Notes: generated by a model not told the origin, from the letters alone. DNA of 28,557 nt from an uncultured Planctomycetales bacterium (GCA_964373175.1 CAYJTP010000019.1:1-28557); one strand, 5' to 3'. Shown: positions 867-24,748, counted from the stretch's first letter. Numbers and translations: made by a program.

Positions 867-1172
867 CTAATCCAAAATCTTCTTAAGAGCCGCCCTGGCC
901 TTAGTCAGCAGCTTATGCACCGCCTGCTGGGAGATCCCCAGCGCTCCAGCAATCTGGCGCTCGTTGTGCCCCTCGGCGATGAGTTCCACCGCCTGCCGCT
1001 GGCGGGGAGGGAGTTTCTTTAGTGCCGCTTCCAGATCCAGCCGAAGGAGAAGACCCGGGCGGGGGTCGAAGCGCGCGCGGCGCGCGACCTCCTGTTCCGA
1101 TTCACACAACGGCTCGTCGTTGCGTTCGATCTTGGCCATGTCGAAGTACAACACCTCCTTGCGCTTGCGCAT
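867..1172 (-). CDS. small sigma-70 region-4 (LuxR/ECF-type HTH) only protein, 101 aa
   Basis: The C-terminal half LPPRQRQAVELIAEGHNERQIAGALGISQQAVHKLLTKARAALKKIL is a typical sigma region-4 HTH. There are no regions 2 or 3. Confidence 0.7.
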   Translation of the reverse strand: MRKRKEVLYFDMAKIERNDEPLCESEQEVARRARFDPRPGLLLRLDLEAALKKLPPRQRQAVELIAEGHNERQIAGALGISQQAVHKLLTKARAALKKILD

Positions 1173-1280
1173 CGGGGCGCGAGGCCACCTTCCGGGGCCC
1201 GGAATGAAAAAGGCCCGCCCCAGCCGGCGTTATGGTTTGGCCGACTGGCTGCGGGCCTCTGCCCCCTGACCTTCGCGGGC

Positions 1281-1460
1281 CTATGCCCCTTGGTTTAGAT
1301 GACGCTCCAGATCTTCAGTCTTCAGGATGAAGAATTGTTTGCACTGCGAGCAGTAAATCCTTACCTTGCCATTGACCACCTCCCCCAAAAAGTGCCGGCA
1401 GCGGTCCAGGAGCCGGAGTTTCTTCCGCGGCTGCTCTGGAACCGCTTCCGGATCACTCAT
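1281..1460 (-). CDS. small Cys-containing (CxH...CxxC) protein, 59 aa; an alternative long form runs 1281-1580
   Basis: ATG 1458-1460 (MSDPEAVPEQ...) is preceded by GGGGGGAA and sits ~70 nt downstream of an ECF-type promoter. The longer ORF, starting at 1580, would overlap the divergent start at 1571. Confidence 0.45.
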   Translation of the reverse strand: MSDPEAVPEQPRKKLRLLDRCRHFLGEVVNGKVRIYCSQCKQFFILKTEDLERHLNQGA

Positions 1461-1523: not shown

Positions 1524-1551
1524 TGAGACCCCGATCCCCTCGAAAAGTTCC
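1524..1551 (-). promoter_or_regulatory. ECF-sigma type promoter GGAACTT-N16-TCTCA (minus strand)
   Basis: On the minus strand: GGAACTT ttcgaggggatcgggg TCTCA. It has the same architecture and 16-nt spacer as the three other copies at 3970-3997, 7215-7242 and 8738-8765. Confidence 0.5.
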
Positions 1552-1570
1552 CTACCCTCCCAGGAAAGCT

Positions 1571-2395
1571 GTGGTACCATCTCCCCATAAAACTGCTGCC
1601 TCCCCTTCGATGTCTAAGCCGATGATCCGCTTGCGCCTGTTTGTCCGGCAGAACCGGTTTCTGCTGGGTGCGCTGGGGGTATGGTTCCTGGCGGGGTTCC
1701 TGGTCTATTCCTTTTGGTTCCGACTGGGGACGGTGGACGCTTTGCTCAGCGCTTTGTACCTCCGCTTCCACGAGGCCGACTCAAGCGCGGACTTCGCCTT
1801 CGGCTACAGCATGTGGGGGCAAGCGCTTACCCTTGGGGTGGTTCTGGGGCTTTTGGTTCAGAACGCGCTGGATCGTCAAAATCCGGAGAGGGGATGCAGA
1901 CTGATGGCTCAGATGATGAAGGGGCACACCGTGGTGATCGGCTACTCGCACTTAGGGAAACGCCTTGTCCAACATTTCCTGAAAGAAGGGATCCCCTTTG
2001 TCCTCATCGAGAAGGACCGAGAGAAGATCGATGAGCTGCTGCGGGATCACCAGCCGATTGTTATAGACGACGCCCGGGAGCCGGACGCCCTGGCCGACGC
2101 CAACGTGAAGGGAGCCAAGGCGGTGATCGTCGCCTCCAACAACGTGGAGACGGCCCTTCTGGTGACCAAGCGGGTCAGGGACCTGAACAAGCAGTGCCTA
2201 CTGATCGTGCGGTGCTTTCACGACGAGCTGACGGAAGTGTTGGAGGCACTGGGAGCCAACGGGGTGATCTCCAGCTCGAAGACCGCCTTCGAGGAGATCG
2301 TCAAGACCCTTGGGCTATCGGCTCCAACCGGAACGGCGAACCCGCCTGCTCAGGTAGCCGAGGCTGGCGCCGTTCCCGGGTCCACTCTCCTCTAG
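1571..2395 (+). CDS. membrane protein with two TM helices plus an RCK/TrkA-N NAD-binding domain (K+ channel-like)
   Basis: The N-terminus is hydrophobic (LLGALGVWFLAGFLVYSFWF, LTLGVVLGLLV). VVIGYSHLGKRLVQHFLKEGIPFVLIEKD is a GxGxxG Rossmann motif of the TrkA-N type. GTG start at 1571 with AGGAAAG upstream; ATG 1610 is an alternative. Confidence 0.75.
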   Translation: MVPSPHKTAASPSMSKPMIRLRLFVRQNRFLLGALGVWFLAGFLVYSFWFRLGTVDALLSALYLRFHEADSSADFAFGYSMWGQALTLGVVLGLLVQNALDRQNPERGCRLMAQMMKGHTVVIGYSHLGKRLVQHFLKEGIPFVLIEKDREKIDELLRDHQPIVIDDAREPDALADANVKGAKAVIVASNNVETALLVTKRVRDLNKQCLLIVRCFHDELTEVLEALGANGVISSSKTAFEEIVKTLGLSAPTGTANPPAQVAEAGAVPGSTLL

Positions 2396-2408
2396 GGGGC
2401 TTAGGCGG

Positions 2409-3668
2409 TTATTTGCCGTCCCCCGCTTTCCCTGGCGGCCCCTGCGCGGGTATCCTCGACAGGCGGCCCACCAGCCAGGACTTGAGCTCCTGGTAGAGGG
2501 TCGGGCTCGTCGCCTCCAGCGCGTTGATCATCCCCCCAAGATTGGCGCCCCCTGAAGGGCTGAACAGGTCCATGAGGGAGTTGGTCGGCCCGGCATTGAT
2601 GAACCGGATGTCGGCGTTCTTGAGGGCCTCCGCGGCCGTCACGCCGATCCTCTCGTCCTTCTCGATCTGCCGAACCTGAAGGGCCGCCTCGTTGATCTTC
2701 TTCAGGGCGTCCGCCAGCCGGCTCTTCGCATCCGCCTCGGCGTAACCGACCGCCCGAACCCCCTCGGCCTCCCCTCCCTTGACCCGGATGGTCGACTGCT
2801 TCTCACCCTCGGCCCGCTCAACGGCCGCATCCCGCTCAATCTCCGCCTGCCGGACCTGCTGGATCCGGGTCACCCGCATCGCCTCTTCCTGGGCCAGCTG
2901 GCGCTGCTTGGCGACCTCCAGCTCCTTCAACTGCTCCCGCTTCCCCACCTCCTCATCCCGCTCGAGCTCCCGCACCTTGGCCAGCTGCTCGGCCTCCGCC
3001 TCCTTCAGCCGAGCCTGCTTGCGCTGCTCCGCGTTCTTCTGGCGCGCCTCCGAGTTGATCTGAACCTCCACGATGCTGCTGATGTCCTGGATGACGGTGG
3101 TGGACTTGTCGGGAGGATCGGAGATGTTCACCAGCTCCAGCGCCTGCAGGGACATCCCCCACTTCTGCACCTCGGGGGAGAGGACCTGGTGGATCTTCTT
3201 GGCGATCAGGTCCCGCTCGTTGATGATCTCCCGGATGGTCAGCTTGGTCGTCGTGTCGCGCGTGGTCGCCTGGACGATCTTGACCACCTGGCTCCTGAGC
3301 TCCTCGATGCCCTGGGGAAACCGCTGCGTCGCGCGGATCGCGTCGTCGACCGCCAGATAGGCGACGATGTCGCACTCGAAGCGGACCCGGTCCCGGTCGA
3401 ACGCCAGGAAGTTGGGGACGTCCACCTCGATCATCTGCAGGGAGATCTTCTGCACCTGCAGCCCGACGAACGGGATGAACCGGGGAACCTCGAAGTAGGC
3501 GGCCCGGCCGTCGCCGCTGTGCTCCTTGTGGCCGGAGTAGACGCGAGTCTTGCCCCGCGCCACCACCACATGGGCCATGTTCACCGGAACGACCCGGTAC
3601 CAGAGGATCGCCAGCACAACGGCAAGAAGTGCAATCGATCCGATCACACCCAATGTTATCCATCCCAC
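2409..3668 (-). CDS. floT: flotillin (SPFH/band-7 domain plus long E/A/Q-rich coiled coil), FloT-like
   Basis: N-terminal TM helix, an SPFH core, then an EAEAEQLAKVRELERDEE...-type coiled coil typical of bacterial flotillins. The GTG start at 3666-3668 follows a GGAGGG SD and lies 5 nt after the stop of the upstream 81-aa gene. The ORF track extends it to 3752 in frame. Confidence 0.85.
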   Translation of the reverse strand: MGWITLGVIGSIALLAVVLAILWYRVVPVNMAHVVVARGKTRVYSGHKEHSGDGRAAYFEVPRFIPFVGLQVQKISLQMIEVDVPNFLAFDRDRVRFECDIVAYLAVDDAIRATQRFPQGIEELRSQVVKIVQATTRDTTTKLTIREIINERDLIAKKIHQVLSPEVQKWGMSLQALELVNISDPPDKSTTVIQDISSIVEVQINSEARQKNAEQRKQARLKEAEAEQLAKVRELERDEEVGKREQLKELEVAKQRQLAQEEAMRVTRIQQVRQAEIERDAAVERAEGEKQSTIRVKGGEAEGVRAVGYAEADAKSRLADALKKINEAALQVRQIEKDERIGVTAAEALKNADIRFINAGPTNSLMDLFSPSGGANLGGMINALEATSPTLYQELKSWLVGRLSRIPAQGPPGKAGDGK

Positions 3669-3670
3669 GG

Positions 3671-3916
3671 TTACTGCCCTCCTTTCGCCTGCTTGACCTT
3701 CGCCGCCAGACGGATCCGCCCGTCGTAAATCTTCGGGCCCACATCCTGGCACAGCAGTTTGATCACCTCGTCCCCCATCACGACGTAGATGTCCCTCCCG
3801 TCATTGATTTCCTTGTGCGCCTGCTCCAGCTCCTCGACGGTTGAGAAGACGATCCGGTCGCCCCCTTTGTCGTTGTGGTACAGCTCCTCGATGCGGAACT
3901 TCCTGATCTCACTCAT
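3671..3916 (-). CDS. small soluble protein (81 aa) co-transcribed with flotillin
   Basis: ATG 3914-3916 (MSEIRKF...) has an AGGGGG SD 5 nt upstream. Its stop, TAA 3671-3673, abuts the flotillin start. It sits in the position usually occupied by an NfeD-like partner but is too short and not obviously NfeD. Confidence 0.55.
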   Translation of the reverse strand: MSEIRKFRIEELYHNDKGGDRIVFSTVEELEQAHKEINDGRDIYVVMGDEVIKLLCQDVGPKIYDGRIRLAAKVKQAKGGQ

Positions 3917-3969
3917 CGGCACCCCCTGTCCTTATGAACCTGCGCATGAAAACCCGGCCGATCGCTGAA

Positions 3970-3997
3970 TTAGACCCCGGCCGGCCGGAAAAGTTCC
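3970..3997 (-). promoter_or_regulatory. ECF-sigma type promoter GGAACTT-N16-TCTAA upstream of the 81-aa/flotillin operon
   Basis: On the minus strand: GGAACTT ttccggccggccgggg TCTAA, ~50 nt upstream of ATG 3916. Confidence 0.55.
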
Positions 3998-4124
3998 TGG
4001 ATTCGCAGCTCCCTAGAAACCCAGCAGGCTCCAGAGACGGGCCCGGCGGTAGGCGCTGTCGATCTTCTGGTCCAGACGGTTCACCCATGGCATGAGGGCT
4101 TTATCGGTCATTGACGCCTGGATT

Positions 4125-5030
4125 TCAGTCCGCCCTCTTGGCTGCCGGCGAGCTGAGGGAACGGGTCGCATCCACGGACGGCGTTCCCGGGGCGACCCGG
4201 AAGAGCGGCATGTTCGCCTCGGTGGCCACGTAGACGACGTTCGGATTGTGGCCCAGGGTGTTGATCCAGAGATAGTGCAGATACTGGGCCGTCAAACTCT
4301 GGTTGATGATCTCCTGGGCGTCACGAATCCCATGGGCTTCAACCCGTTTGCGTTCCGCTTCCTGCTCCTCCCGCTGCAACACGAACCGCATCCGCTCCGC
4401 GTCCTGCTCGGCCCGGAGTTTCTGCTCGACGGCGTCACGCACGGTGGGGGGAAGGGTCACCTTTCGCAGAAGGACCTTCTCCACGATGATCCCGCGCGAC
4501 TCCACCAGCTCCTGAAGATGCTGCTCCAGGCGATGGGCCAGGACCTCCCGCTGGGAGGTGTAGAGGGCCTTGGCCTCCTCCTCGGCCGTGACTCCTCGGG
4601 CGACCGACCGGAACTGGGGGGTCAGGATCACGGCTTCGTAGTCCCTGCCCACCGTCTTGTACACCTCCACCGCCCGCTGGGGGTCCAGCCGGTACAGGAG
4701 GGAGATCTCCAGTTGGATCGTCAACCCTTCTTTGGAGGGGACGTCCGCAATCTCTTTGTCCTCCTGGGTTCGAATGGAAATCGGGATCATGGTGGCCAAC
4801 GGGTTGACCACCCGCAGGCCCGGGTGGAGAGGTCGGTCCGCCACCCGGCCGAACAGATCCACGATTCCGACGTGGCCCGCCGGGACGATCCGGAGGGTGG
4901 AAAGGAGCGCCCCGACCAGAAGCCCAAGCAGAGTGGAACTGAGAAGCCGTCCGACGTAGAACCGGTTCTCCCGGACGCTGACCGCGACCCCAATCAGAAC
5001 TCCGATCACAAGACCCGCTACGACGAACAT
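4125..5030 (-). CDS. SPFH/band-7 (prohibitin/HflC-like) membrane protein
   Basis: N-terminal TM helix followed by a band-7 core (GIVDLFGRV..., EISLLYRLDPQRAVEVYKTVG...) and an EQ-rich helix. Confidence 0.85.
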   Translation of the reverse strand: MFVVAGLVIGVLIGVAVSVRENRFYVGRLLSSTLLGLLVGALLSTLRIVPAGHVGIVDLFGRVADRPLHPGLRVVNPLATMIPISIRTQEDKEIADVPSKEGLTIQLEISLLYRLDPQRAVEVYKTVGRDYEAVILTPQFRSVARGVTAEEEAKALYTSQREVLAHRLEQHLQELVESRGIIVEKVLLRKVTLPPTVRDAVEQKLRAEQDAERMRFVLQREEQEAERKRVEAHGIRDAQEIINQSLTAQYLHYLWINTLGHNPNVVYVATEANMPLFRVAPGTPSVDATRSLSSPAAKRAD

Positions 5031-5069
5031 CGCACGCCTCCTCTCAAGTGGATTTCTTCCAGCCGGCCG

Positions 5070-5297
5070 TCATCCCAGCACGGACCCAAGAATGATCGCG
5101 ATGAACAGCAGGAGTATCCCCGCGAAGACCGCGGCGGCCAGGTTCCCCTTCTTGATCTCCTCCATGAAATTGACCTCCGGGAAGACCACCTTGTCCAGAA
5201 ACCGGACCGCCAGGGTCCCCACCACCAGGGCCACCACCGCGTACAGCAGGTTGATCACCAGGGAGCTTAAGTTGGCTCTCAGTAGCTCGGGCGTCAT
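5070..5297 (-). CDS. DUF350-like small membrane protein (YjfL-type), 76 aa
   Basis: MTPELLRANLSSLVINLLYAVVALVVG...AAAVFAGILLLFIAIILG has two TM helices. ATG 5295-5297 overlaps the TGA of the upstream gene (ATGA). The track ORF extends to 5432. Confidence 0.55.
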   Translation of the reverse strand: MTPELLRANLSSLVINLLYAVVALVVGTLAVRFLDKVVFPEVNFMEEIKKGNLAAAVFAGILLLFIAIILGSVLG

Positions 5298-6451
5298 CGT
5301 CGCACCTCCGTTTCGGGTTGAACAGCGCCTTCCTCCACCTTGAACCCCGTCGCCTCGGTAAGCTGGGGGGTCCACCCCACCGCGTAGGCGGTCAGGGGGC
5401 TGACCACGTACTCCTCCGGATAAAGCCGCCACTCGTGCATCAGGTCGTCCGGGTAATAATCCTCCGCCCCCGCCACCGCGTAAAGGTCGTCGGCCCCGAA
5501 AAGATGGAACATCTCATGGATGTACGGGCTGACGCCGGCCGGATCGACAGGACGCTCGGTGTCCCGGTAGCAGATCGCGTACTCCATCGAGTCCGGGTAA
5601 GGAGGGCAGCTCTTCCCCGGCGGGCAGAAATGACGCCGGGCAAAGGAGCGGCCTTTGAAATCGACGTGAAGCAGGATCGCCACGTTCCGCACCCCGTACC
5701 GGTCCCGGAACGACTTCACAAAGGCCCGGCTGTCCGGGAAACCCAAGGCCTGGATCAGCAGCTCCACCCACGCCTGCTCCGCCGCCTCACCCGCCTGGAC
5801 CCGGTCCGGGAGCCCGATCAGCTTTAAGGGGAAGATACGATCCGCCACCAGCGTCTCCTCCGCAAAAAGAATCTGGGCGACGTTCCACTTCCGCCGCCAC
5901 CGGTCCACCCACCTCTCCCCCTCCTTCACCGTCGAACTCACCTCCTGGATCGCCGTGGGCTTCCAGTGCTCCGAGTCCCTCGGCCGGATGAAGCAGTGGA
6001 CCATCAGAACCTTCTCCTTAAGGGCTGCGGCGGAGCCGATGAACCGCCCCAAGGAGTAGGCCGGCTGCTGGCGTTCATGCTTTAAAAGGGAGAGCACCTG
6101 ACCCGCCTGGCGGGCCCCGTACGCGGCCCGTCTATTCCGCGGGTCCTCCTTCAACGCCCGGCGAAAGGTCTCCTCCGCCTGACGGATCTTCCCCTTCCTC
6201 AAGTGACACCAGCCGATCAGGGCAAGGTAACGGGCCTTGATGGAAGGCACCTCCGCCTTCGAAAGGCCCTGTTGGAGGACGGCGAGCGCCTCCGAGAACT
6301 TCTCCTGCCCGGTCAATTCCTCCCCTTGGAGGAGCTCCGGTGGAAGGGGGTGGACGAGACCTGACTGGGAGTGTCCTGCCACAGCCAGAAGGACCGTCGA
6401 GCTGACCAGGAGAAGGAGAATCAGCCAGAGGTTGGGAGATGGACCCCTCAT
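5294..6451 (-). CDS. secreted/lipoprotein-like TPR-repeat protein with a C-terminal HExxH motif (putative metallopeptidase-like)
   Basis: Signal peptide MRGPSPNLWLILLLLVSSTVLLAVAG; TPR-like helices; HEMFHLFGADDLY near the C-terminus. Confidence 0.7.
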   Translation of the reverse strand: MRGPSPNLWLILLLLVSSTVLLAVAGHSQSGLVHPLPPELLQGEELTGQEKFSEALAVLQQGLSKAEVPSIKARYLALIGWCHLRKGKIRQAEETFRRALKEDPRNRRAAYGARQAGQVLSLLKHERQQPAYSLGRFIGSAAALKEKVLMVHCFIRPRDSEHWKPTAIQEVSSTVKEGERWVDRWRRKWNVAQILFAEETLVADRIFPLKLIGLPDRVQAGEAAEQAWVELLIQALGFPDSRAFVKSFRDRYGVRNVAILLHVDFKGRSFARRHFCPPGKSCPPYPDSMEYAICYRDTERPVDPAGVSPYIHEMFHLFGADDLYAVAGAEDYYPDDLMHEWRLYPEEYVVSPLTAYAVGWTPQLTEATGFKVEEGAVQPETEVRR

Positions 6452-7191
6452 GGCTCCAGGGCGTACTCCGCGCTACAGGTGACGGAGAACTTGAGCATGC
6501 CTGGGGCCAGCTCCGGCGGCGCCATGTAGGCCTCCTTCGCCTGGGCCATACTCCGCTCAATGAAGGTAAGCTGCTGCCCGCGCATCTGGATCGGCTGCGG
6601 CCAGGAGGTGCTGTCGGTCAACTTCAGGGCGCGGCCGAGCCGAGCCCCGGCGTTGACGGCCAAATCCTCCGCCTTCTGCCGCGCCAACTGGGCTGCCTTG
6701 ACCCGGGCCGACTGCTCCATCCTGTAATGGTCCTCCACGCTGAAGACGATCTGCTGGACCGTGGTCACCTCCTCGTCCACCGCGTCGTCGAGCAGGGGGC
6801 CCAGCGTCTCAAACGTCCTGATCTTGGCGGCGATCTGGTGCGTCACGGTATAACGGACCGGCTTGCGCTTGTTGTCGTAGATGGGGTTGATGTGGTAGCC
6901 GCGGGTCTGGATGTCTTCCGGCTTTACTCCCCGCTGCTTCAGGGCGGACATGATCTGGTTGGTGGCCTCGGTGTTCTTCTCAAAGGCCCTCTGGAGCCTC
7001 GACTCGGTGGAGGTGACGACCAGCTCCACCGTGGCCAGGTCCGGCTTGGTGATCACCTCCGCGGTGGCGCTCACCGTGATCCTCGGCTGGTCCTTCGGCT
7101 CCGCGATGATGATCCGCTCGGACGCCTCCACCGCCGAAGCGATCCAGATGGAGCCGCACAACACAACGGCAACCCACTTCCCTTTGCTCAT
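6448..7191 (-). CDS. SIMPL/DUF541 family periplasmic protein
   Basis: Signal peptide, then ...KQRGVKPEDIQTRGYHINPIYD... and the C-terminus are characteristic of the SIMPL / 26-kDa periplasmic immunogenic protein family. ATG 7189-7191 has an AAGGAGGG SD 7 nt upstream. The track TTG at 7227 would lie inside the promoter. Confidence 0.8.
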   Translation of the reverse strand: MSKGKWVAVVLCGSIWIASAVEASERIIIAEPKDQPRITVSATAEVITKPDLATVELVVTSTESRLQRAFEKNTEATNQIMSALKQRGVKPEDIQTRGYHINPIYDNKRKPVRYTVTHQIAAKIRTFETLGPLLDDAVDEEVTTVQQIVFSVEDHYRMEQSARVKAAQLARQKAEDLAVNAGARLGRALKLTDSTSWPQPIQMRGQQLTFIERSMAQAKEAYMAPPELAPGMLKFSVTCSAEYALEP

Positions 7192-7214
7192 GGCTTTGCC
7201 CTCCTTTGAGACAG

Positions 7215-7242
7215 TAAGACCCCTCAAGGGAGGAAAAGTTCC
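7215..7242 (-). promoter_or_regulatory. ECF-sigma type promoter GGAACTT-N16-TCTTA, internal to the sigma operon, upstream of the SIMPL gene
   Basis: On the minus strand: GGAACTT ttcctcccttgagggg TCTTA, then ctgtctcAAAGGAGGGcaaagccATG. Confidence 0.55.
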
Positions 7243-7263
7243 GGAAAAATCGGGCGGGGCAAC

Positions 7264-8073
7264 TTAAGGTTGCCGGGAGGAATCACCGGGAACCAGCTCC
7301 AGAATCACCCAGTAAGAGCCGGATGGGGCCTCCCGCAGCTCCTCTACGGACGCTCCTCGAAGGAGGTCCGGAGGAATCGCGGCGAGAGGAACGTCCCGGA
7401 GTTGCCCCAAAGTGGAGAGCCGGCTCCTGAGCTTGGAATATTGGCGCTCCGTCAGGGTCAGGGAGTAGAGGGTGGGAGCCAGGGACTGCGTGTGAACGGG
7501 CCGGATCTTCGCAAGGGCGGACTCCACTCCCTCCCTCCCTTTCTCCAGATCAGCCACGGAGAGCCGCAGGGAGATCGGCCGGCCCGCGGCGGGCCCCTGC
7601 GCAAAGGCGGAGGCCTTCTTCCGCTCCAGAAGAGGGGCGGCGGGAACGGCCTTGGGAGGCCCTTCCGCGAACGTCTGGGAGCGGGAATAGAGGGGTTCCT
7701 GCAGGGCCGGATCCGGTTTTCCCGGCGGCTGGATAATCAACACCACCTGGCAGATCAGAAGCGCCACAGCCGCTGTTGCTAAAGCTCCTACCGGGACCTT
7801 CACATACCAGGGGTCCAAGAGCCACTCTTTCAACCGGGCCCCCCAGCCAGCGGCATCGATCCTCTCCCAGACCTCACTGCGGAAGCCGGGCGGGACGGGA
7901 GGGGAGGCGAGCCCCTTCAGTTGGGCCAGCAGCCCGCGCAGCCGCAGCAGCTCGGAGGAGCAGGCGGGACAGGTGGCCACGTGGGTGGCGACAGTTTCTT
8001 TATCAGGAGGATTCAATTCCCCCTCCAGATAGGGGGAGAGTTTTCCGTGGACGGACCTGCACTCTACCGGCAT
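7264..8073 (-). CDS. membrane anti-sigma factor with N-terminal zf-HC2 (H-x3-C-x2-C) domain
   Basis: HVATCPACS zinc-finger motif; a single TM helix (GALATAAVALLICQVVLII); Pro/Ala-rich extracytoplasmic region. It overlaps the sigma gene by 10 nt. Confidence 0.8.
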   Translation of the reverse strand: MPVECRSVHGKLSPYLEGELNPPDKETVATHVATCPACSSELLRLRGLLAQLKGLASPPVPPGFRSEVWERIDAAGWGARLKEWLLDPWYVKVPVGALATAAVALLICQVVLIIQPPGKPDPALQEPLYSRSQTFAEGPPKAVPAAPLLERKKASAFAQGPAAGRPISLRLSVADLEKGREGVESALAKIRPVHTQSLAPTLYSLTLTERQYSKLRSRLSTLGQLRDVPLAAIPPDLLRGASVEELREAPSGSYWVILELVPGDSSRQP

Positions 8074-8708
8074 GCCCTGACTCCTTCCAGCAATTTCCTG
8101 AGCATCGTTCGGCCCCGGTGGAGCCGGGACTTCACCGTGCCGATCTGCTCCTTGCAGATCCCGGCGATCTGATCGTAGGGCAACCCTTGGATGTCCCGCA
8201 GCACCACCGCCGTCCTGAGGGGAACCGGCAACCGGGCGATCGCCTGTTGAACCTTGGCCTGGAGCTCGGCGCGGCCAGCTTCCTCCCGGGGGTTGGGGGC
8301 GCAGTCCTGGATCCTCTCATGAACCGGATCCTCGCCGTCGTTGGCCGGGACGTCCAGCGAAACCGTCCGCGCCGTCCGGTGGCGGGCGTGCCAGCGGCGC
8401 CGGTGCCGGGCCAGGTTCAGCGTGATCTGGTAGGCCCAGCTCCGGAAGGCCGCCTCTTGGCGAAAGCGGGGCAACCCCCGCCACATCCGCAGGAACGCCT
8501 CTTGAGACACATCGATCGCCTCCTCGTAATTCCCCAGCATCCGGTACGCCACCGAAATGATCTCCTGCTGGTAACGCAGCATCAGCCGGTCGAATGCCGC
8601 CCGGTCCCCCTGCTTCGCCCGATGGACCAGATCCGCATCGGTCTCCTCGGTGGCCAGGGTTTGAGCCGGACCTGCTCCCGTCGGGCAATCCTCAGGAGGC
8701 GCATCCAT
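8064..8708 (-). CDS. ECF (group IV) sigma-70 factor
   Basis: Region 2 (AFDRLMLRYQQEIISVAYRMLGNYEEAIDVSQEAFLRMW) and region 4 (LPVPLRTAVVLRDIQGLPYDQIAGICKEQIGTVKSRLHRGR) are both present. Confidence 0.9.
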   Translation of the reverse strand: MDAPPEDCPTGAGPAQTLATEETDADLVHRAKQGDRAAFDRLMLRYQQEIISVAYRMLGNYEEAIDVSQEAFLRMWRGLPRFRQEAAFRSWAYQITLNLARHRRRWHARHRTARTVSLDVPANDGEDPVHERIQDCAPNPREEAGRAELQAKVQQAIARLPVPLRTAVVLRDIQGLPYDQIAGICKEQIGTVKSRLHRGRTMLRKLLEGVRACR

Positions 8709-8737
8709 CGCTTGGTTGAGAATGTATATCTACGGGG

Positions 8738-8765
8738 TAAGACCCCGCCGGCCCTGGAAAGTTCC
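8738..8765 (-). promoter_or_regulatory. autoregulatory ECF-type promoter GGAACTT-N16-TCTTA upstream of the ECF sigma gene
   Basis: On the minus strand: GGAACTT tccagggccggcgggg TCTTA, ~30 nt upstream of ATG 8708. Confidence 0.55.
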
Positions 8766-8798: not shown

Positions 8799-9008
8799 CT
8801 ACCCGCATCTGAGAATGGTGTAACCGGGCCCGCTCAGGTGCTCATCGGAACTGGTAATACGGCAGCCGCTCTCCCTCCGGTCCTTCTCCCAGCACTCCGG
8901 GCACTTTCTGTTGCTGATGACGGTAACCCGGGAGTCCTCCGCAGTATTCCCGTCAACGTACCAGATCTCGTTGTCGAACGGCTTGCCGCAGGCGAAGCAG
9001 TTCACCAC
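8799..9008 (-). CDS. small zinc-ribbon protein (CxxC...CxxC), 69 aa
   Basis: CFACG...CPECW motifs; GTG start with a GGAGGG SD upstream. It lies between the DUF2779 gene and the ECF promoter. Confidence 0.4.
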   Translation of the reverse strand: MVNCFACGKPFDNEIWYVDGNTAEDSRVTVISNRKCPECWEKDRRESGCRITSSDEHLSGPGYTILRCG

Positions 9009-9067: not shown

Positions 9068-10552
9068 TTAAATTGCCCGAAGAACCTTCAGGATATCCAG
9101 CATGGCCCGCGTGTCGAGCTTGCAGTATTCGAGAAGACCGTCGTAGACCCGCCTTCTCTCCTCTTCCGCAACGCCGTCCGAAAAGGTCACCCGGGCATAT
9201 TCCCGGCTGGCCTGCCCGCCGTCCGAGATCGTCATTCCTTCATAAGACCCCCCGATGAGCGCAGGGTAGACGGACTTGATGGAGTACCTGCCGAGCTGTT
9301 TCGGATCGTAATAATCGAACTTCTGGAACGGCAACATCAGATCCAAGAGCCGCCCGTCAAGCTCGTTAAACCAATCGCCGTATTCCGGATAGGCCTCCAC
9401 CGACTCCCGCATCCGGTCCCGCTCGAAGCTCAAATGAAAAGCGAGGATGCTTCCCTTCGGACCCACCAGACGCTTGAGCCGGCTCAGGAACTCCGGCCGG
9501 GGGTCGCCCGGATCTTCGGCCAAAAACGCGTGGTGTGCAAGCTCTTTGTCCGGACCCCGCAAGATGTGCAGTGAGAACTGGAACGGCACCTGCTGGAAAG
9601 GCCGGGTCCCGTCATAAAAGGGGATGGCCGGATTTACCGTCTCGAAGTCTATGAAATGGACCGGGAATTCGATCTGTTCCATAAACGCGCGGATCGCGGC
9701 CCGGTCGGTGTGAGTCTTGTTTTCAACGTGGCACCGGTGGACAATCTGGTGGCTCACCGCCGTCAACTGCTCCGGCGGCACATCTTGAACCCGCACGCAC
9801 CCACCGTTGATAAACCCAAAGGCCTTCTCTTTCCGGATCTTGTTGAGCACAAAAACGCTGTCCTCCGGGATGTGCCGCCAGCACAGCTCTTGCAGCGGAC
9901 AATCGTAAGGCTTGCTGCACTGCGGCCCGATGGCAATCTCCGGGCATTCTTTCCGGCTCAGGACGCCGAGCATCCCGTTGACCCGCTCCTCCACCTGCGC
10001 GGACAATTCCCGGACTGGTTCTGTGACATCCTCCCTGCTCAGCAGGCCTTCGGGGTCGATCGGCCCGCTCTTCACGTACTCGTTGTTGACATGGACCAAG
10101 TAGACCTTCCCGATCTTCAAACCTGCCCCTTCGTAGCAGTATTTTTGGAAGGCGACGTCCTCGTAGTGGACCTCTTTCAACTCGGACGAGCTCTTCACCT
10201 CATAGAGGTCCCAGCGCCCACCCTTTCCGGGGGCCAGCACGTCGGCCCGCGCGTAGGTGCTCTTGTATCTAAAACCGGGCTCAAACAGCGGCTTGTTCAG
10301 CGGAAGAGCCGAGCGGGTCTCCCGGATAATCTTCTCAAAATCATCAGAACCCTGAATCTCAATTCCATTCCGAAAAAGCGTCTGGAACAGCCGGGTGACC
10401 CGGTGCCCCTGGTCGAAGAGAGCTTGGGTCTCAGGATCAGTCGGGGGGAATTGATCCTGGGCGTGGTAATGCATCCAGAGGAGCTTCGGGCATTTCAGCC
10501 CATCAAGGTATTTGCTTTTGGATAGGAACGGGGCTGTCTTTAGCGTGGCCAT
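9068..10552 (-). CDS. DUF2779-family protein: N-terminal Cas4/RecB-like PD-(D/E)xK nuclease, C-terminal domain with a D-x-E (IDFET) motif
   Basis: The N-terminus LSKSKYLDGLKCPKLLWMHY is the signature opening of the DUF2779/Cas4-like family. WDLYEVKSS is an ExK motif. Several Cys residues are present. The C-terminal half contains FIDFETVNPAIPF. Confidence 0.8.
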   Translation of the reverse strand: MATLKTAPFLSKSKYLDGLKCPKLLWMHYHAQDQFPPTDPETQALFDQGHRVTRLFQTLFRNGIEIQGSDDFEKIIRETRSALPLNKPLFEPGFRYKSTYARADVLAPGKGGRWDLYEVKSSSELKEVHYEDVAFQKYCYEGAGLKIGKVYLVHVNNEYVKSGPIDPEGLLSREDVTEPVRELSAQVEERVNGMLGVLSRKECPEIAIGPQCSKPYDCPLQELCWRHIPEDSVFVLNKIRKEKAFGFINGGCVRVQDVPPEQLTAVSHQIVHRCHVENKTHTDRAAIRAFMEQIEFPVHFIDFETVNPAIPFYDGTRPFQQVPFQFSLHILRGPDKELAHHAFLAEDPGDPRPEFLSRLKRLVGPKGSILAFHLSFERDRMRESVEAYPEYGDWFNELDGRLLDLMLPFQKFDYYDPKQLGRYSIKSVYPALIGGSYEGMTISDGGQASREYARVTFSDGVAEEERRRVYDGLLEYCKLDTRAMLDILKVLRAI

Positions 10553-10992
10553 CTTGTGAATTTGACAGCCGACGCCGTCGCTCTACGCACTACCCCGTCG
10601 CTATCTACCAAGAAAAACCACAACCCCAACCAACGAGCGGCTCTCCGCATCTCAGCGCTGAGGATCCGTCTCCTGTAGAAAGGGTGGTCCGGCAACGCGA
10701 CCGTGTAATAAGCGTTCTTCTGCCTCATCCGGAGAATAATTTGTCCGAGTACAGAGAGGAAGTAGTTATCCCTCTGCGCCGTTTCGCTGTAGCCGGTCGG
10801 GTAACCTTTGCACTCCACGAAGATGTAGTGTCGGTATCTGGGATGATATCCCACAACATCCGCCCCGTGGGCCGCGAGGGGGCGTTCGACATGAAGTTTG
10901 TAGCCACGATCGTGAAGGGCTTTCCTGATCGACCTTACAACGTAATGTTCACCAAAACGATTGCTCAATTTCAGCTGTCGCTTTCCCTTCAT
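10540..10992 (-). CDS. Mrr-cat-like restriction-endonuclease fold protein (150 aa)
   Basis: HGADVVGYHPRYRHYIFVECKGY matches the D-x-D...(Q/E)-C-K pattern of the Mrr catalytic domain. ATG 10990-10992 overlaps the TGA of the upstream gene (ATGA). Confidence 0.55.
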   Translation of the reverse strand: MKGKRQLKLSNRFGEHYVVRSIRKALHDRGYKLHVERPLAAHGADVVGYHPRYRHYIFVECKGYPTGYSETAQRDNYFLSVLGQIILRMRQKNAYYTVALPDHPFYRRRILSAEMRRAARWLGLWFFLVDSDGVVRRATASAVKFTRWPR

Positions 10993-11933
10993 ATGGAAGT
11001 CCGCGAAGGCGCTTCTCCCAAGAGCCGGCCTGTTTCCTGATAAGCAGCTTTAACGAGTTCGATGGCCGAAGCCATATCCTGGGGTCGCTTTACATGCGCC
11101 TGAATCTTAAAGACATCGGATTCCCTGACCGCCCTTTGTTTTCCAAGAGAATTACCCTGAGGGACTTTAGGTAGGCGAAGAATTAGGCGCAATCCCTCTC
11201 GCTGACAAGTGACGTAACAAACAGTTGCCCATCTCCTTTTAAGCATGAGCCTCTTTTTGCCGACCTTGTATTCCAAATCAGGCAATTGGTTCTTGAGCGC
11301 CTCCTCCAAACCCTCGTACAACCTCTGTAACGTCTTCGGAAGGCTCGCTGCAAAATCTGCGGCAGTCTCAACCTGAACAGCAGCTTGTACGGCTTTGCCT
11401 TCCCTGCTTTTCAAGAGCGGAGCGATTGAGGCAACGGCGACTGCCGGCTTGATTTGCTCGAAGGAAAGAGTGCTGTTGTCAAAGCGACTGAAGCGCCACA
11501 GCTCTATCGGAATATCCTTGAAATTGATGGCTGCCATCTGATGCGGCGTGAACCGTTGAGCCACAAAAAGGACCTTGGATTCAGCCCAATCGATGTCTTT
11601 CTTTGTCAGGTTCTTGCCGAACTTCTTGTTGTACTCCAGCACAAATTCAGCTTTGTTGTTGAGCATCGTAGCGAGGTAGGCATATCCTTGATCGATCACG
11701 CTTCCTCCCTCGTCTCGTTTGTACTCGATGATAACGAAAGCGTTCGTCTCTTCATCAAAGGCGACTGTATCCAGAGTGAAACTCTGAACCGTAAATTCAT
11801 GTGCCACCAACTGGAGGCCGAAGATCTGGTTCAAGTTGGTTTCCACAACAATCTGGATGTCTGCCTCCAACCGAATCGACTGCTCCGCAATCAACCGGAG
11901 CTTCTTATTCCCATCGAGCGAGTAGAGCGGCAT
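10989..11933 (-). CDS. PD-(D/E)xK nuclease-fold protein (N-terminal HsdR-N/NucS-like domain) with a C-terminal domain of unknown function, 314 aa
   Basis: LDTVAFDEETNAFVIIEYKRDE has a D...D...E-x-K arrangement after a helix. The gene is visibly AT-richer than the surrounding region. Confidence 0.6.
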   Translation of the reverse strand: MPLYSLDGNKKLRLIAEQSIRLEADIQIVVETNLNQIFGLQLVAHEFTVQSFTLDTVAFDEETNAFVIIEYKRDEGGSVIDQGYAYLATMLNNKAEFVLEYNKKFGKNLTKKDIDWAESKVLFVAQRFTPHQMAAINFKDIPIELWRFSRFDNSTLSFEQIKPAVAVASIAPLLKSREGKAVQAAVQVETAADFAASLPKTLQRLYEGLEEALKNQLPDLEYKVGKKRLMLKRRWATVCYVTCQREGLRLILRLPKVPQGNSLGKQRAVRESDVFKIQAHVKRPQDMASAIELVKAAYQETGRLLGEAPSRTSI

Positions 11934-12010
11934 ACTGACTCCTCAAGAAGGGATGCATCCCTCTATGAAACGTGTCCTGCGCTCTTTGCGTGGATTCTGT
12001 AATGCCTTTC

Positions 12011-12427
12011 CTAATAGCTGCTGTCTTCTACCTGCCGGGGCAATTTCACTTCCTTAAACAGGTAGGTTTCCTTGCACTTGGGACACTGCTTGTAGCTACC
12101 GTTCCCATACTCTTGGAGATACACCAACTTTTTGTCTGAGAAGCAGCCCGGACAGAAAAATCGTTCAAACGGTTTAGCGTCCTTCGCCCGATAGACAACG
12201 GCCCCTTCTGATGTTTGATATTCCTCTACCGTTCCCCTGAGTTGTTCCCATTCCCGTGTTTCATCCAGCTCTTTTTTATATTCGAGCATCTGCTCCTGGA
12301 GCTGCAGGTTTCTCTCGCGAAGATCTTGGTTCTGCTGCCTCAGCTCCTCGATATAAGAAAGGACTTGCAGGACCTCTTCTTGATTTACAAACCTATTGAG
12401 GGCAGAAAGAATCTCCTTCGGGTTCAT
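12011..12427 (-). CDS. coiled-coil protein with a C-terminal CxxC...CxxC zinc ribbon (138 aa)
   Basis: LRQQNQDLRERNLQLQEQMLEYKKELDE is a coiled coil; CPGC...CPKC follows. ATG 12425-12427 overlaps the MTase TGA (ATGA). Confidence 0.6.
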   Translation of the reverse strand: MNPKEILSALNRFVNQEEVLQVLSYIEELRQQNQDLRERNLQLQEQMLEYKKELDETREWEQLRGTVEEYQTSEGAVVYRAKDAKPFERFFCPGCFSDKKLVYLQEYGNGSYKQCPKCKETYLFKEVKLPRQVEDSSY

Positions 12428-15400
12428 TTCATCATGATCTCCTGTTTGGTTGTTCCTCGTGCTAGGTGACAAAGCCGTGGGTCGGCGGGCGGAGGATCGA
12501 GAACTGTCTGGTAGGGCTTCCCATCTGAGATGGCTCGTTGCATGGCGTCGTAGCGTTCCAGGATGACCCGCTTGGTGCGGTATTCGCCAAAGCGTTCCTC
12601 GTCCTTTTCTCTGACAATGGGAAAGGTGTCCAAGATGTAATCGGCATCTTCCTGGGAGATGCCATACAGGTGAAAAAAGGCGGCGTCTAACTCACATCGC
12701 AATAGAAACCGGCGCTCATCATCCCAACGAAAGGGCGGACTGCCATAGCCGAGGTCATTGGCAAAGGGTTTGAGGTCCCAAGCAGTAAAGGTGAGCTCAA
12801 GGACACGTTGAGCCACCCATGATCTAACCGATTCAGTCACTGCCCAAGCACATGCCTCGCCATAAATCGCAGGGGGTAAGACTGGAAACTGATTTACAAG
12901 GAAGAAGCTGAGGTTGACTCCGCCAATTTTCTGTCTAACGACATAGTCAAAAATGAATGCACATAAGTTAGCGTACAGTAGTCCAAAGTCCTTCGCATCC
13001 TCTGTACCAAGCACAACGGGCATACTATGCCCAACGCCAGCCCATGGAAACAACCCGGGATTCATTGTCCGTTCATTAGTGGGACTCGTTACGTTGGTGA
13101 AGCCGAGAAGCCATTGGCGATTCCACTTCCCTGCAACAGCTTGGTTGCACTCATGCTCCTTAACCCAGTAAAGTGGCATAACGACACGGTCCGGATTGAC
13201 AAGCTCCGAGCTATCGAGCGTGTCGGGTTGTGCTCTGCGCTGCCGCGCTCGAGCACTGACAACAACATCTGCTGCGCGATGGTTGTAAATCTGAGACATC
13301 TTGGCTTCGTAGAGGGGGAGATATCGGGAGTCGCCCTTGTGAAAAACGTTCCCCTCCAGGCGCCAGTCCTCGGCGATCAACTGGTCACGCGTGCGAAACA
13401 AGTGCGAATCGCTGGTCATATTAAACAAACCCTGGCTGAACGAGACGCCCCATGGATTTTCTTCTGGAGGACCCTCTTTAATCAACACCGGCACGCGGCG
13501 ATAGATGGCCTTGGTGATCTCGGCGTCCCGCTTTGTCCGGAAAATCGGGCAAGTCCTGGTGTTGGGGTTCAGAAGGGCAATTTCTTCGGCGGTCAGAGTA
13601 AAGCGACGGTCTTGTTCACCGAGGTCCTCCACCCTGTGAAGGAAGAAAGCAAACTCGGCGCCATCGGTAGTCGGCCGCCCACGGCCGGTCAGAGTGAGGA
13701 GGCAAAACTTCATTCGGCTGTGCACAGCAGGAAAAAGTTTCTCACGGTTCTCAAAGTCATAGAGACTCACCAGCGACCGTGACCCCACGAGATCCTGAAA
13801 GAAGAACTTGGTCGTGTCATCTGTGGCAATGCCTGTAGGGACGATCGCCCCTACCCTCCCGGAAGAGGAAATGAGCGTGCGCTTGGTTTCGGCGAAAATC
13901 GCATAGGTGTTGATACGACCTCGGCCGCAGAGTGGATAACGCCCAGAGTTGCCTGCGAAATGAGCCATCCCATCCGCATATCTTCGAGCCTCCAAAAACT
14001 CTTTGTAGAGCGCGGGGGCATGCTCTTCTAATTCCTCGATTTTGCGCTTGCGCGCCGCACCAGTTGGAGCATTGGCGATGTCGGGATATCGGGTAGAAAA
14101 CCACTCTTTTTCCTTCAGCTCGGTATGCTCCCACGGCGGATTCCCCAGCACCACGTCGAATCCTCCGCTCCAGCCGGCCCGAGCGTTCTCCGGTTTCCCT
14201 TCAGCCGGAACCCGAAAGACTTCCGGGAAAGCCAGGTGCCAATGAAAGAACCGGTATTGTCCGGCTAGCCGGACGATCTCCTCTTGGACAGCAGGTGGAA
14301 TGGAATCCGGATCCTTCTGAAGTTCCAAGAAAACCGCGTGAGTGATCGGAGGAGGGGCTCCGGCGGCTTTCTTCCACATGAATGCAGCACACCAAGCGTC
14401 GGCCACTAAACGGGCCTTGCGGTACTCAGGGGACTCTGTCAGACGGCAAAACTGCGCTTCCTTGGCCCGAACACCGCCGATGGAGTCTTCCGGCAAGGCT
14501 TCCAAGGTTTCTGATTGGTGAGATAACGTGGTGTAGGCAGCTTTCGGCTCGGCCACCGCCATCGCTGAAAAAAGAGTGGCTTGGCCGCGCCGTTCATCGC
14601 GGTTCTGCCGGCGCAAGCTGCTGCAGGTTTGTTTGTCGTCCCCCTCGATCTGCTGAAACGCCTCATCCGGGATGCCCTGTTTGAGCAAAGCCGGAGTCGC
14701 ACCAATTAAACTGTTCCCGCAAAGGATGTGGTGATCCAAGAACGACAGGGGCTTGCCGGGCTCAATCGCCTCCATCCAGAGCCCGATCTTGCACAGCTCT
14801 ACGGCCATGGGATTCTGATCCACCCCGTGAATGCAGTGGCTTATCACCTCTCGGAGTGCCGGGCGCAGGGCAGCCGGGGACGGCTCCTCATCGCCAGTCC
14901 GGATCTGAGCCAGGCGCCTGGCGATTCGATGAGCTGCCGCCACCAGAAAATGCCCGCTTCCACAGGCAGGATCGCAGACCCTTAAACCGAGGATCGCCCG
15001 CTGGGGATCGGATTGGCGGGCCGCCTCCTCCAGGACCGGCTCCAGGGCTGAATCCAGGAGACAGCGGATGAGACTGGCGGAAGTGTAGTAACTGCCGGTT
15101 GTTTTCCTCTCAAGACCGGACTCGGCGGAAAACCCAAAGGTGCGGGCATCGGTGTTCACATCCGGGTGAAGCTCCAATAGCGATTCATAGACGCTGCCGA
15201 ACTCCTCGGTCCCGAGATTTTTGAAATCCACAGGACGCTGCAGGTGATCCTGCTTAACCAGGGTAAGTGCCCGAACCGCAGTGAGAAGATCCCGGTTGGA
15301 CAGCTCACCGGAGCTGAGGTCCGGTGTCGCCTGCGGGGACCACAGAGAGCTTCCCAGAGCCGGCAGTGCCAGAGGGGGGCACCCCTCATCGCCGCTCAGC

Positions 15401-22300: not shown

Positions 22301-24483
22301 GTAACACGCCAACCCCGTTCAAGATCGCGGTAGAGACGGTAGCCCAGGACCCACCGTAGGGCGCGTTTAGTCTCCTCAAGGGCTTGGAAACGAGCTTCCG
22401 AATTGCTGGCATAGAACTCCAATGGCAGATTCAAGGCTTCGAAAACACGCTCGACTAGAAACTCGTGGGAAAGCCCCTCCTGCCCGACTGCCTTTACAGC
22501 CTTGTACAGGGCCGAACGGAGGACTCCAATCTGGAGGAAGTCGTTGAAATGACCGGCTTGCAAAGAGGCATCCTGCCTGTTGTCCGTGAAGCTGAGAAGC
22601 TTGCGCGCATGCCCAGGGAGATCCTCCGCCTTTTTGAGGTAACGAATCGCGGCAAGGCTGAGGATCGTAGTGGCCGTGCTTCGCCCTTCTGTCGCAAGAG
22701 AGGTCAATTTCGCGAAGTCAGAACGCTGGCGGGCTCCGTAGGCAACACCGCAGGCAAGGCAGAAGTGGAAGGGGGCAGGGACATAATGGAGGTCGGTGCC
22801 GCCTTCTCCTTCAACCGCCTCCGTAGAGACTCGCACGGGTTTGGGGATCCACTCCTGGCGATCTTTCCGAACACGAAGAGAACCCCGGAATTCCTCAAGA
22901 CAGTCTTCCGGAAGAGATTCCAGAACCTTCCCTGGATCTGTTGGCCAGGGGTGACTGGAGCTCAAGTAGAGGAAGCCAGGCTCCCCCTCCTCATCGTTAA
23001 ACCGGTCAGAGAGGGCACGCGGGGAAAATGCTCGTAACCCGTTCGTCTCATCCTTTTGGACGCGCACACAATAGTATTCCTGTCCACATTCTCTACAGAA
23101 AACAAGCGGCAGGAGGACGCGTTTCCGATCTCCTGGGACGTAGCGTTGCCCTTGAACGGCGAGGTAGCGTTGATTCTCTGGTTCAATTGAGGCGTAAATC
23201 GTGTCCCCCCGGCTGATAAACTGATGGAGGCGGAAAGCAAAGACCGGGAATCCGGTTTCGGGGTTGAGCTTGCGGTAGCTTGAGAGGAGATGGCTCTCCA
23301 TCGCAAGAACACATTGCTTCTCCGTTAACCCTGTAAGTTCGCTCAATTCCTTGGCGGCACCCTGTTCTCCACCGATTGAACGGGGTTTCGCACGAACGGG
23401 CCGCCCCGTGCCCGGCTCCGAGGCAAGCCCGAACACAGATTCAATCCAGACGGAGAGGGGGTCGTTCAAAAACGAGCGGTAATCTAACGTCTCTCCGGCT
23501 GGTCCTGCTTCTATTCTCTGACGAAGCTGGGCGGAAAATCCGGGGTGTCGGAGGCCCTCGGACGGTGTTGCGCGGCGCACACTTTCTCCGATGATGTGTT
23601 CCGGCTGAACAAGCGAGCCAAACAGTCGCGTAGCAACAGCCGCTACCTCTGCTTGCTGCTCGAAAAGGGTTCCGGAACCAGCGATCGTCGCTGAAGTGCC
23701 AACGTACTGAATTTTCTCTGCACCAAAGGCGTCCTTCGCACGGCGAACCAGCATGGCCACATCAGCCCCCTGACGGCCGCGATAAGTATGGAGCTCATCC
23801 AGTACAAAGAAACGAAGCCCCTTGGCGGCCGCGATAAGGGCGCGTTCATAAGGGCGGGTTAAAAGCAACTCGAGCATGACGTAGTTGGTAAGCAAGATAT
23901 CCGGTGGATTCGCGATGAGACGCTGCCTCTCTTCATCCTGTTCCTGCCCCGTGTAACGAGCAAACGTCACCTGCGCCTTTCCTCCCGGAGAAGAACTGAG
24001 GAAGCGTTCCAGCTCGTGAAGCTGACTGTTGGCCAAGGCATTCATGGGATACACAATAAGCCCTCGGATACCCTTCCCCGAACCCTCGCGCAAGATGTGG
24101 TCTACAATCGGGATGATGTAAGAAAGGCTTTTCCCGGAACCGGTCCCCGTCGTCAACACATAGTTGGTTCCTGCATGAGCGGACTTAATAGCTTCTGCTT
24201 GATGTTTATACAGGCGTAAAGGCTTTTTTGATCCATCCGACCCGATCAAGAGAAATATTTGGCGGCAGGCTGGATGCAAGATTCCACCTTCAACAAGCTC
24301 TTCCACCGATTCCCCCATCTCAAACGCCGGATTAATCTGAATCATGGGATCAGGCCAAAGGAGTCCGCCCTTTAAGGCTTGCCCGACTGTTTCTTCAATG
24401 CGGGGATCCTGGATGTGGATGAAACTCTGGATGTAATCGCCGTAATACGTGATCAGCCTATTCCGCAGATCAAAGACGTTCAT
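19288..24483 (-). CDS. 1731-aa DEXH-box helicase of the DrmA/MrfA(YprA) type with CxxC zinc modules (DUF1998-like) and a C-terminal DUF559/Vsr-like endonuclease domain
   Basis: KHQAEAI...[17 protein letters not shown] (Q motif / Walker A), [11 protein letters not shown] (DExH), TSATI. Motifs V and VI (TMELGVDI...[12 protein letters not shown]) lie ~700 aa further downstream. CRECG...CLACG and CDHCG-x17-CDRCGG are zinc modules. The C-terminus ...[45 protein letters not shown] matches the DUF559/Vsr PD-(D/E)xK pattern. Confidence 0.9.
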
Positions 24484-24746: not shown

Positions 24747-24748
24747 AG

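Follow-up and report, generated by a model that had tools for sequence, protein, structure and literature searches.

Four copies of a bipartite motif, GGAACTT-N16-TCTNA, lie on the minus strand of a 28,557-nucleotide stretch of DNA from an uncultured Planctomycetales bacterium (GCA_964373175.1 CAYJTP010000019.1:1-28557), hereafter called the window, and one of them directly precedes a gene for a sigma factor of the extracytoplasmic function (ECF) kind (8064-8708, minus strand). We consider it highly probable that the four sites, named P1 to P4, are ECF promoters used by this adjacent sigma factor, which would thereby control a compact, self-amplifying regulon. Five independent lines of evidence converge on this reading: the fit of the motif to published consensus sequences, the kinship of the sigma factor to structurally solved relatives, the position of P1, the recurrence of the motif at the loci of sigma homologues, and the matches returned by a genome scan that was blind to genes. 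Taken together, they support the proposal, made in an earlier note on this DNA, that the sites tie the sigma factor to its neighbouring genes.

An exact search for GGAACTT-N16-TCTNA retrieved four matches on the two strands of the window, all in minus orientation and at the positions already listed in the earlier note: 8738-8765 (P1), 7215-7242 (P2), 3970-3997 (P3) and 1524-1551 (P4). In 100 dinucleotide-preserving shuffles of the window the mean number of matches was 0.01 and none of the shuffles reached 4. The uniform -35 element GGAACTT, the 16-nucleotide (nt) spacer ending in GGGG and the -10 element TCT(T/A/C)A described previously were all recovered, and the pattern common to the four sites is longer than had been noted. 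It can be written GGAACTTT-N-C-N9-GGGGTCT-N-A or, with its variants spelled out, GGAACTTT(T/C)C ... GGGGTCT(T/A/C)A with a spacer of 16 nt; P1, for instance, reads GGAACTTTCCAGGGCCGGCGGGGTCTTA. These four sites contain 4 of the 6 GGAACTT and 4 of the 5 GGGGTCTNA occurrences of the whole window. They also fit the published consensus sequences for promoters of the ECF02 group.

The window was then scored with a weight matrix trained on 18 sites from other organisms, the window sites being left out to avoid circularity. P1, P2, P3 and P4 obtained 30.5, 31.2, 35.0 and 30.3 bits, respectively, and the runner-up on either strand obtained 7.5 bits. With the same matrix, the top score per shuffled window (200 shuffles) had a mean of 9.9, a standard deviation of 3.0 and a highest value of 19.4, so that even the best shuffle trailed each of the four sites by more than 10 bits. 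Given this gap between 30-35 bits and the next best score, the window holds four such sites and no further ones. A weak plus-strand arrangement, GGAAC-N19-TCTTA, at 1494-1522 upstream of a TrkA_N gene was considered and discarded: its spacing is off by one, it lacks both the TT and the GGGG, and it is not among the top weight-matrix scores. It is probably due to chance.

All four sites are intergenic and each is oriented with the gene that follows. Between the last base of TCTNA and the start codon there are 29 nt at P1, 23 nt at P2, 53 nt at P3 and 63 nt at P4, so that the range of 30-70 nt given earlier was roughly right. Clear Shine-Dalgarno (SD) sequences follow P2 (AAAGGAGGG), P3 (GGGGG) and P4 (GGGGGG). 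Sigma-70-like promoters were looked for in the intergenic spacers that hold P1 to P4 and none was detected.

The protein encoded at 8064-8708 comprises only the sigma-2 and sigma-4 domains in its 214 amino acids (aa), with Pfam E-values of 1.7e-16 for Sigma70_r2 and 9e-14 for Sigma70_r4_2, and it scores well above the cutoff of the NCBIfam sigma70-ECF model TIGR02937 (105.5 versus 42.9). Its score stays below the cutoff of the RpoE equivalog TIGR02939 RpoE_Sigma70 (133.3 versus 236.15) and below those of the SigW equivalogs NF007223 (129.1 versus 209) and TIGR02948 (111.1 versus 243.1). By these profiles it is an ECF (group IV) sigma factor, but neither an RpoE nor a SigW equivalog. Its best solved relatives in a sequence search of the PDB are Pseudomonas aeruginosa AlgU (5e-36), Escherichia coli sigma-E (1e-26) and Bacillus subtilis SigW (2.5e-25), and we describe it as sigma-E/AlgU-like. 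None of its homologues in public data exceeds 75% identity; the best ones, at 55-75%, are found on short metagenome contigs.

The kinship with sigma-E allowed the residues facing the -35 element to be compared. The crystal structure that shows region 4 of sigma-E bound to GGAACTT assigns the reading of both G bases to R176 and S172 and that of the G opposite C to R171; F175 touches the AA tract and R149 the T-rich tail (PMC1540707). In a HMMER alignment the sigma-E contacts R149, Y156, T169, R171, S172, F175 and R176 correspond to R, Y, T, K, S, H and R in the window protein. Other group IV sigma factors with the same bases have a lysine at position 171 and a histidine at position 175, residues regarded as compatible with a C at -31 and an A at -33, and S172 correlates with G at -34 (PMC1540707). 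Since the -35 contacts are thus kept or conservatively replaced, the alignment indicates that the adjacent sigma factor carries the residues expected for reading GGAACTT.

P1 ends 29 nt before the ATG of the sigma gene, and its position fits that of an autoregulatory promoter with an AAC-type -35 and a GTC/CGT-type -10, as predicted from sequence. Directly downstream of the sigma gene, and overlapping its stop by 10 nt (8064-8073), lies the gene of a 269-aa zf-HC2 protein (7264-8073, minus strand; Pfam zf-HC2, 5.6e-9), as found for a cognate anti-sigma factor. The anti-sigma signature C5-x25-H31-x3-C35-x2-C38 is complete in its N-terminal zinc-binding domain, and the hydropathy profile gives one transmembrane (TM) helix at 96-114. 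The C-terminal domain of about 155 aa has no family match. Against the NCBIfam anti-sigma models the protein stays below every cutoff, and its best PDB match, a weak one, is RsiW.

The conservation of the motif was examined on the contigs of the best sigma homologues and in 80 metagenome loci encoding homologues, using the relaxed pattern GGAAC[TC]T-N12-16-[GT]TC[TA]NA. About 35 matches were obtained, every one of them on the sigma strand, and they fall at two places, one directly ahead of the sigma gene and the other, 1.5-2 kb downstream, directly past the anti-sigma gene. The loci with a motif span 38-68% sigma identity and their spacers are unrelated to one another. A site in the position of P1 is kept before the sigma homologues of L002/L133, L006/L126, L129/L130, L131/L132, L134 and L151. 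The -10 element drifts with the distance of the sigma factor, from GGGGTCTnA at 58-68% identity to GGTGTCTCA at 42-48% and CGGTCTCA beyond. Unrelated spacers combined with such a gradual drift bear the signature of selection acting on two boxes held at a fixed distance, which would not be expected of a repeated element.

Past the second promoter of these loci, the closest relative (L006/L126) has a homologue of SIMPL, and most other relatives have a gene for a secreted protein of 640-715 aa with no Pfam match. Instances of the latter are L130 9679-11619, L133 2666-4681, L140 3252-5366, L149 9639-11786 and L153 9693-11618, and on contig P0005 the gene in the same position past the anti-sigma gene has a DUF4139 match. 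At another pair of loci an M48 (HtpX-like) peptidase gene (L004 2904-4025, L005 1703-2824) stands directly upstream of a sigma homologue of 49% identity; no motif precedes the sigma gene there, and the sole motif lies past the anti-sigma gene.

A scan that took no account of genes gave a consistent picture. When a single genome of each species was searched for GGAACTTT-N11-GGGGTCTNA, at least 119 single matches from many phyla were returned; the source genome of the window is not among the matches listed. Among the 119 matches listed, 27 lie about 50-170 nt upstream of, and on the same strand as, a sigma homologue of 38-42% identity, mostly in Acidobacteriota. As a rough estimate, a random position would be so placed far less than 1% of the time. 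With 27 of the 119 listed matches directly before a sigma homologue, the extended motif appears to serve a widespread lineage of sigma-E-like ECF factors as its autoregulatory promoter.

P2 starts 21 nt past the stop of the anti-sigma gene, and 23 nt separate its end from an ATG. Behind it, four minus-strand genes are closely packed. The first (6448-7191) encodes a SIMPL/DUF541 protein with a signal peptide and a hydrophobic N-terminal segment in the hydropathy profile; its Pfam match is full-length (3e-42; 145.6 bits versus a cutoff of 25.2, model positions 1-205 of 205). Its stop is overlapped by the start of a gene for an exported tetratricopeptide repeat (TPR) protein with a signal peptide (5294-6451), for which Pfam gives TPR families only and in whose C-terminal part the HExxH motif, HEMFH, was read from the translation. 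No Pfam or PDB match extends beyond its single TPR region, and this protein may be an undescribed metallopeptidase. An ATGA overlap leads to a 75-aa DUF350 membrane protein with two TM segments by hydropathy (5070-5297; Pfam 6.3e-9), and a 39-nt gap holding an SD leads to the last gene, encoding a 301-aa SPFH/Band_7 membrane protein (4125-5030; Pfam Band_7, 3e-29) with an N-terminal TM segment and a weak HflK/HflC similarity in NCBIfam. Two overlapping junctions and one short SD-bearing gap are as expected for a single operon.

P3 ends 53 nt before the gene of an 81-aa soluble protein (3671-3916, minus strand), which precedes that of a 419-aa flotillin-like SPFH protein with an N-terminal TM segment (2409-3668, minus strand; Pfam Band_7, 1.9e-14). 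The homologues of the latter are named flotillin by JGI, the nearest so named being in metagenome-assembled genomes labelled Planctomycetota (66%) and Nitrospirae (57%). The protein has an SPFH/Band_7 domain, but its score against the FloT equivalog NF058507 is 58.6, below the cutoff of 700, so that flotillin-like SPFH protein is the safe name. The 81-aa protein has no match in Pfam, NCBIfam or the PDB. Among 5.8 billion proteins it has 6 homologues, each directly upstream of a Band_7/flotillin-like gene where the neighbour is readable, and it is a candidate flotillin partner. P4 ends 63 nt before the gene of a 59-aa Cys/His-rich protein (1281-1460, minus strand), a putative zinc ribbon whose Zn_ribbon match is weak and below cutoff. 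In all, 6 of the 8 products downstream have a signal peptide or TM segments. The labels given earlier to these genes (ECF sigma, anti-sigma, SIMPL, TPR-HExxH, DUF350, SPFH, flotillin and the region-4 protein described below) were upheld by Pfam.

The sites ahead of these target genes could be compared with those of the window's nearest syntenic relative, the 8-kb contig L208. Identity between the two reaches 91% for the flotillin-like protein, 85% for the 81-aa protein, 64% for SIMPL, which follows P2 there, 63% for the 59-aa protein, which ends the flotillin operon there, and 35% for the anti-sigma factor. The motif is found in L208 both past the anti-sigma gene, ahead of SIMPL (GGAACATTTCCCCCCGATCGGGGTCTCA), and ahead of the 81-aa gene (GGAACTTTTCCGAATCGCGGGGGTCTAA), and P2 is conserved ahead of SIMPL in L208 as well as in L006/L126. 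In the alignments of P2 and P3 between the window and L208, identity is concentrated in the -35, the -10 and the SD region. A short T-rich run just 5' of the -35 is also common to the two P2 sites, and part of the SD-adjacent leader is common to the two P3 sites, a 22-nt indel lying elsewhere in that leader. The cargo of P2 differs: in the window it consists of TPR/HExxH, DUF350 and SPFH genes, in L208 of TPM, LemA and unknown genes.

The setting of the 59-aa gene differs as well. In L208 it lies 24 nt past the flotillin gene, has no promoter of its own and closes the P3 operon. In the window, the flotillin-like and 59-aa genes are split by a TrkA_N gene on the opposite strand (1571-2395), which is absent from the corresponding junction in L208, and the 59-aa gene has P4. 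If the motif had no function, it would be difficult to account for a P3-operon gene that bears its own copy where a TrkA_N gene intervenes.

More distant pairs of 81-aa and flotillin genes behave differently. In L206, L209, L211/L212 and L213 the flotillin is 57-85% identical, the pair does not adjoin a sigma locus and the P3 motif is absent ahead of it; L211 has a sigma-70-like TTGCAG-N17-TAGAAT in its place. Since these pairs lack the motif and lie away from the sigma locus, the flotillin operon appears to have joined the regulon recently, which would make P3 membership lineage-specific. A 32-aa open reading frame (ORF) between the SPFH gene and P3 (4013-4111, minus strand) matches, with 78% identity over 23 aa, the C-terminal end of a Zn_ribbon_TFIIB protein of 176 aa, an intact copy of which is encoded at 5613-6143 of L208. 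The ORF is probably not a functional gene, and we read this remnant as the mark of a rearrangement that would have placed the SPFH operon beside P3.

Several observations weigh against the assignment of all four sites to the adjacent sigma factor. The start region of the sigma gene, caaccaagcgATG, has no SD, so that P1 precedes an SD-less start codon and the earlier statement that the sites stand ahead of starts with good SD sequences held for P2, P3 and P4 only. P2 lies 21 nt past the anti-sigma stop with no clear terminator between them, and read-through from P1 could contribute to the expression of its genes. The absence of P3 from the four more distant flotillin loci also counts here, as the link would be recent and confined to one lineage, and both the density of the motif and the membership of the regulon were counted within the 28.6-kb window only. 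In addition, a GGAACTT/GGTC-type motif is common to several ECF lineages, namely those of E. coli sigma-E, of AlgU and of the acidobacterial homologues of about 40% identity, which makes an overlap between paralogues plausible. Genuine ECF promoters might then be read mainly by a paralogous sigma-E-like factor encoded elsewhere, the adjacent sigma factor being one target or a co-user. We judge this unlikely, because the motif travels with the orthologues of this very sigma factor, in the autoregulatory and post-anti-sigma positions, from 38 to 68% identity, because the adjacent sigma factor has the expected -35-reading residues, and because P3 is found only where the flotillin operon adjoins this sigma locus (the window and L208) and not in L206, L209, L211 or L213.

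Four near-identical 28-mers within 7 kb, with 16-nt spacers that are rich in G+C, could also be taken for binding sites of a conventional transcription factor or for a small dispersed repeat of the REP (repetitive extragenic palindromic) kind. An operator or repeat of this sort is very improbable in view of the strictly bipartite conservation at a fixed spacing, with spacers and flanks unrelated both within the window and between species; moreover, every copy faces the next start codon at a promoter-like distance, and the two blocks fit a sigma -35 element of known structure and the -10 that belongs to it. As for fortuitous matches, for which the G+C-rich composition of the DNA is the only argument, the count of 4 against 0.01 expected, reached in none of the 100 shuffles, the margin over the 200 scored shuffles and the recurrence at orthologous positions leave them practically no room.

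If P1 to P4 are indeed promoters of the adjacent sigma factor, the following circuit can be proposed. In the resting state the membrane-spanning zinc-finger anti-sigma factor (7264-8073) would hold the sigma factor, as is known for the family. The anti-sigma factor would then be inactivated by a signal that presumably arises in the envelope or membrane. This signal may act on the outer domain of the protein, where regulated proteolysis of the RsiW or RseA kind is a possibility, or it may act on the zinc/cysteine site; both routes are drawn from ECF family biology, and envelope stress as the inducing signal is what we infer. The freed sigma factor would direct RNA polymerase to GGAACTT (-35)-N16-(GGGG)TCTnA (-10). 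P1 would then raise the levels of the sigma and anti-sigma factors, P2 would drive SIMPL, the TPR/HExxH protein, DUF350 and SPFH, P3 would drive the 81-aa protein and the flotillin-like SPFH protein, and P4 the 59-aa zinc-ribbon protein. With 6 of 8 products exported or in the membrane, the output would be remodelled scaffold proteins in the membrane or periplasm.

In the earlier note, P4 was placed upstream of both the small Zn-ribbon protein and a sigma-region-4 protein. The latter is a 101-aa protein with region 4 only (867-1172, minus strand; Pfam Sigma70_r4_2, 7e-13). Folding of the RNA of 1165-1290 (minus strand) gave a long G+C-rich hairpin with a 21-base-pair stem followed by U5, the region having a z-score of -2.75. 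This terminator-like hairpin, at about 1204-1262 on the minus strand with about 21 paired positions and the run UUUUU, had been missed by a simple terminator scan because of its 11-nt loop. Lying between the 59-aa and region-4 genes, it would end the P4 unit, and the adjacent region-4 protein probably lies outside it, in a separate transcription unit. We also considered that the region-4 protein might be a decoy that binds the same -35 box and rejected this possibility, as its recognition helix QAVHKLLTKAR, read from the translation, lacks the sigma contact residues (GTVKSRLHRGR in the sigma factor) and the terminator separates it from P4.

The TrkA_N-domain membrane protein (1571-2395, plus strand; Pfam TrkA_N, 7e-23), convergent to its neighbour and placed between the flotillin-like and 59-aa genes, is not a member of the regulon. 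Upstream of P1, a 69-aa ORF (8799-9008, minus strand) with two CxxC pairs ends 34 nt before the promoter; it has no family match, and its homology search matches lie within the same genome only. An Rfam search of the window gave no match. The stretch 9068-27620 resembles a defence island. It begins with a DUF2779/Cas4-like nuclease gene (9068-10552, minus strand) and also encodes a PDC-S18 protein, a 1400-aa DrmMI/type IIG methyltransferase-like protein, a DpdE-like SNF2 helicase (PADLOC E = 6e-271), a 1731-aa DruE-like helicase with MZB (DUF1998) and DUF559, and two PD-(D/E)XK nucleases. The G+C content drops to about 0.50 at 11-13 kb.

From sequence alone, our analysis confidently links a sigma factor of an uncultivated lineage to its predicted promoter motif and to eight predicted targets. 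It extends to a sigma-E-type factor of an unrelated organism the link between ECF sigma factors and SPFH/flotillin proteins previously drawn from Bacillus sigma-W, and it flags the 81-aa, 59-aa and TPR/HExxH proteins as likely scaffold partners. The comparison with L208 further indicates that regulon membership shifts over short evolutionary distances. What is most notable is the combination of a cargo centred on SPFH/flotillin proteins, with undescribed small partners, and of promoter gain between close relatives. More speculatively, and as a scenario to which we would give distinctly less than even chances, the sigma/anti-sigma pair and the promoter past the anti-sigma gene could form a portable cassette whose cargo is swapped between lineages, which recruited the flotillin-like operon with its two small partners and in which P4 was re-created after a foreign gene had split that operon. 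If true, the circuit would be dedicated to SPFH/flotillin membrane scaffolds and would offer a clean natural case of regulon growth by promoter gain.

Among known systems, the motifs of E. coli sigma-E are GGAACTTTT for the -35 and (T/C)GGTCAAAA for the -10, between GGAACTT and TCAAA (PMC1312014), and the AlgU consensus is GAACTT-N16-17-TCtgA (PMC3819740). The window motif is a close variant of both, with a 16-nt spacer and GGTC in the -10, in agreement with the sigmaE-type promoter architecture proposed earlier; it differs from that of E. coli in that the -10 is TCTnA after GGGG instead of TCAAA. As in these two systems, the sigma gene is autoregulated (by prediction in the window) and shares its unit with a membrane anti-sigma factor, but the latter is of the zf-HC2 type, not of the RseA/MucA type. 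The E. coli sigma-E regulon is dominated by outer-membrane-protein folding factors, whereas the predicted targets in the window are SPFH/flotillin, SIMPL and DUF350 proteins, with no such folding factor among them. The context of ECF02 sigma factors comprises an RseA-type anti-sigma factor, RseB and RseC (PMC7826278). None of the RseA_N, RseB and RseC domains was detected in the window by Pfam, and the gene after the zf-HC2 anti-sigma gene is SIMPL. SPFH, flotillin and DUF4139 contexts are not mentioned in the main text of that study (PMC7826278).

The likeness to B. subtilis sigma-W/RsiW lies in the anti-sigma factor, which consists of an N-terminal zinc finger, one TM segment and an extracytoplasmic domain, and in the cargo. 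The sigma-W promoter consensus, TGAAAC-N16-CGTA, differs from the window motif, and the small partners of the window (81 aa and 59 aa) are unrelated to NfeD, having no Pfam match. The core regulon of sigma-W holds both flotillin operons, yuaF-floT-yuaI and yqeZ-floA-yqfB (PMC3498285), so that ECF control of SPFH scaffolds has a precedent.

A third point of comparison is offered by sigma-E-like ECF sigma factors of Acidobacteriota (Vicinamibacterales and others), in which the identical extended motif GGAACTTT-N11-GGGGTCTAA stands directly before a sigma gene of 38-42% identity. They belong to different phyla and are distant homologues only, compared here by their autopromoter. The circuit of the window follows the standard autoregulated ECF pattern, in an unusually clean local regulon of a poorly sampled lineage. 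As far as its domains and residues indicate, its sigma factor is sigma-E-like at the promoter and sigma-W-like in anti-sigma type and cargo, while being a member of neither family.

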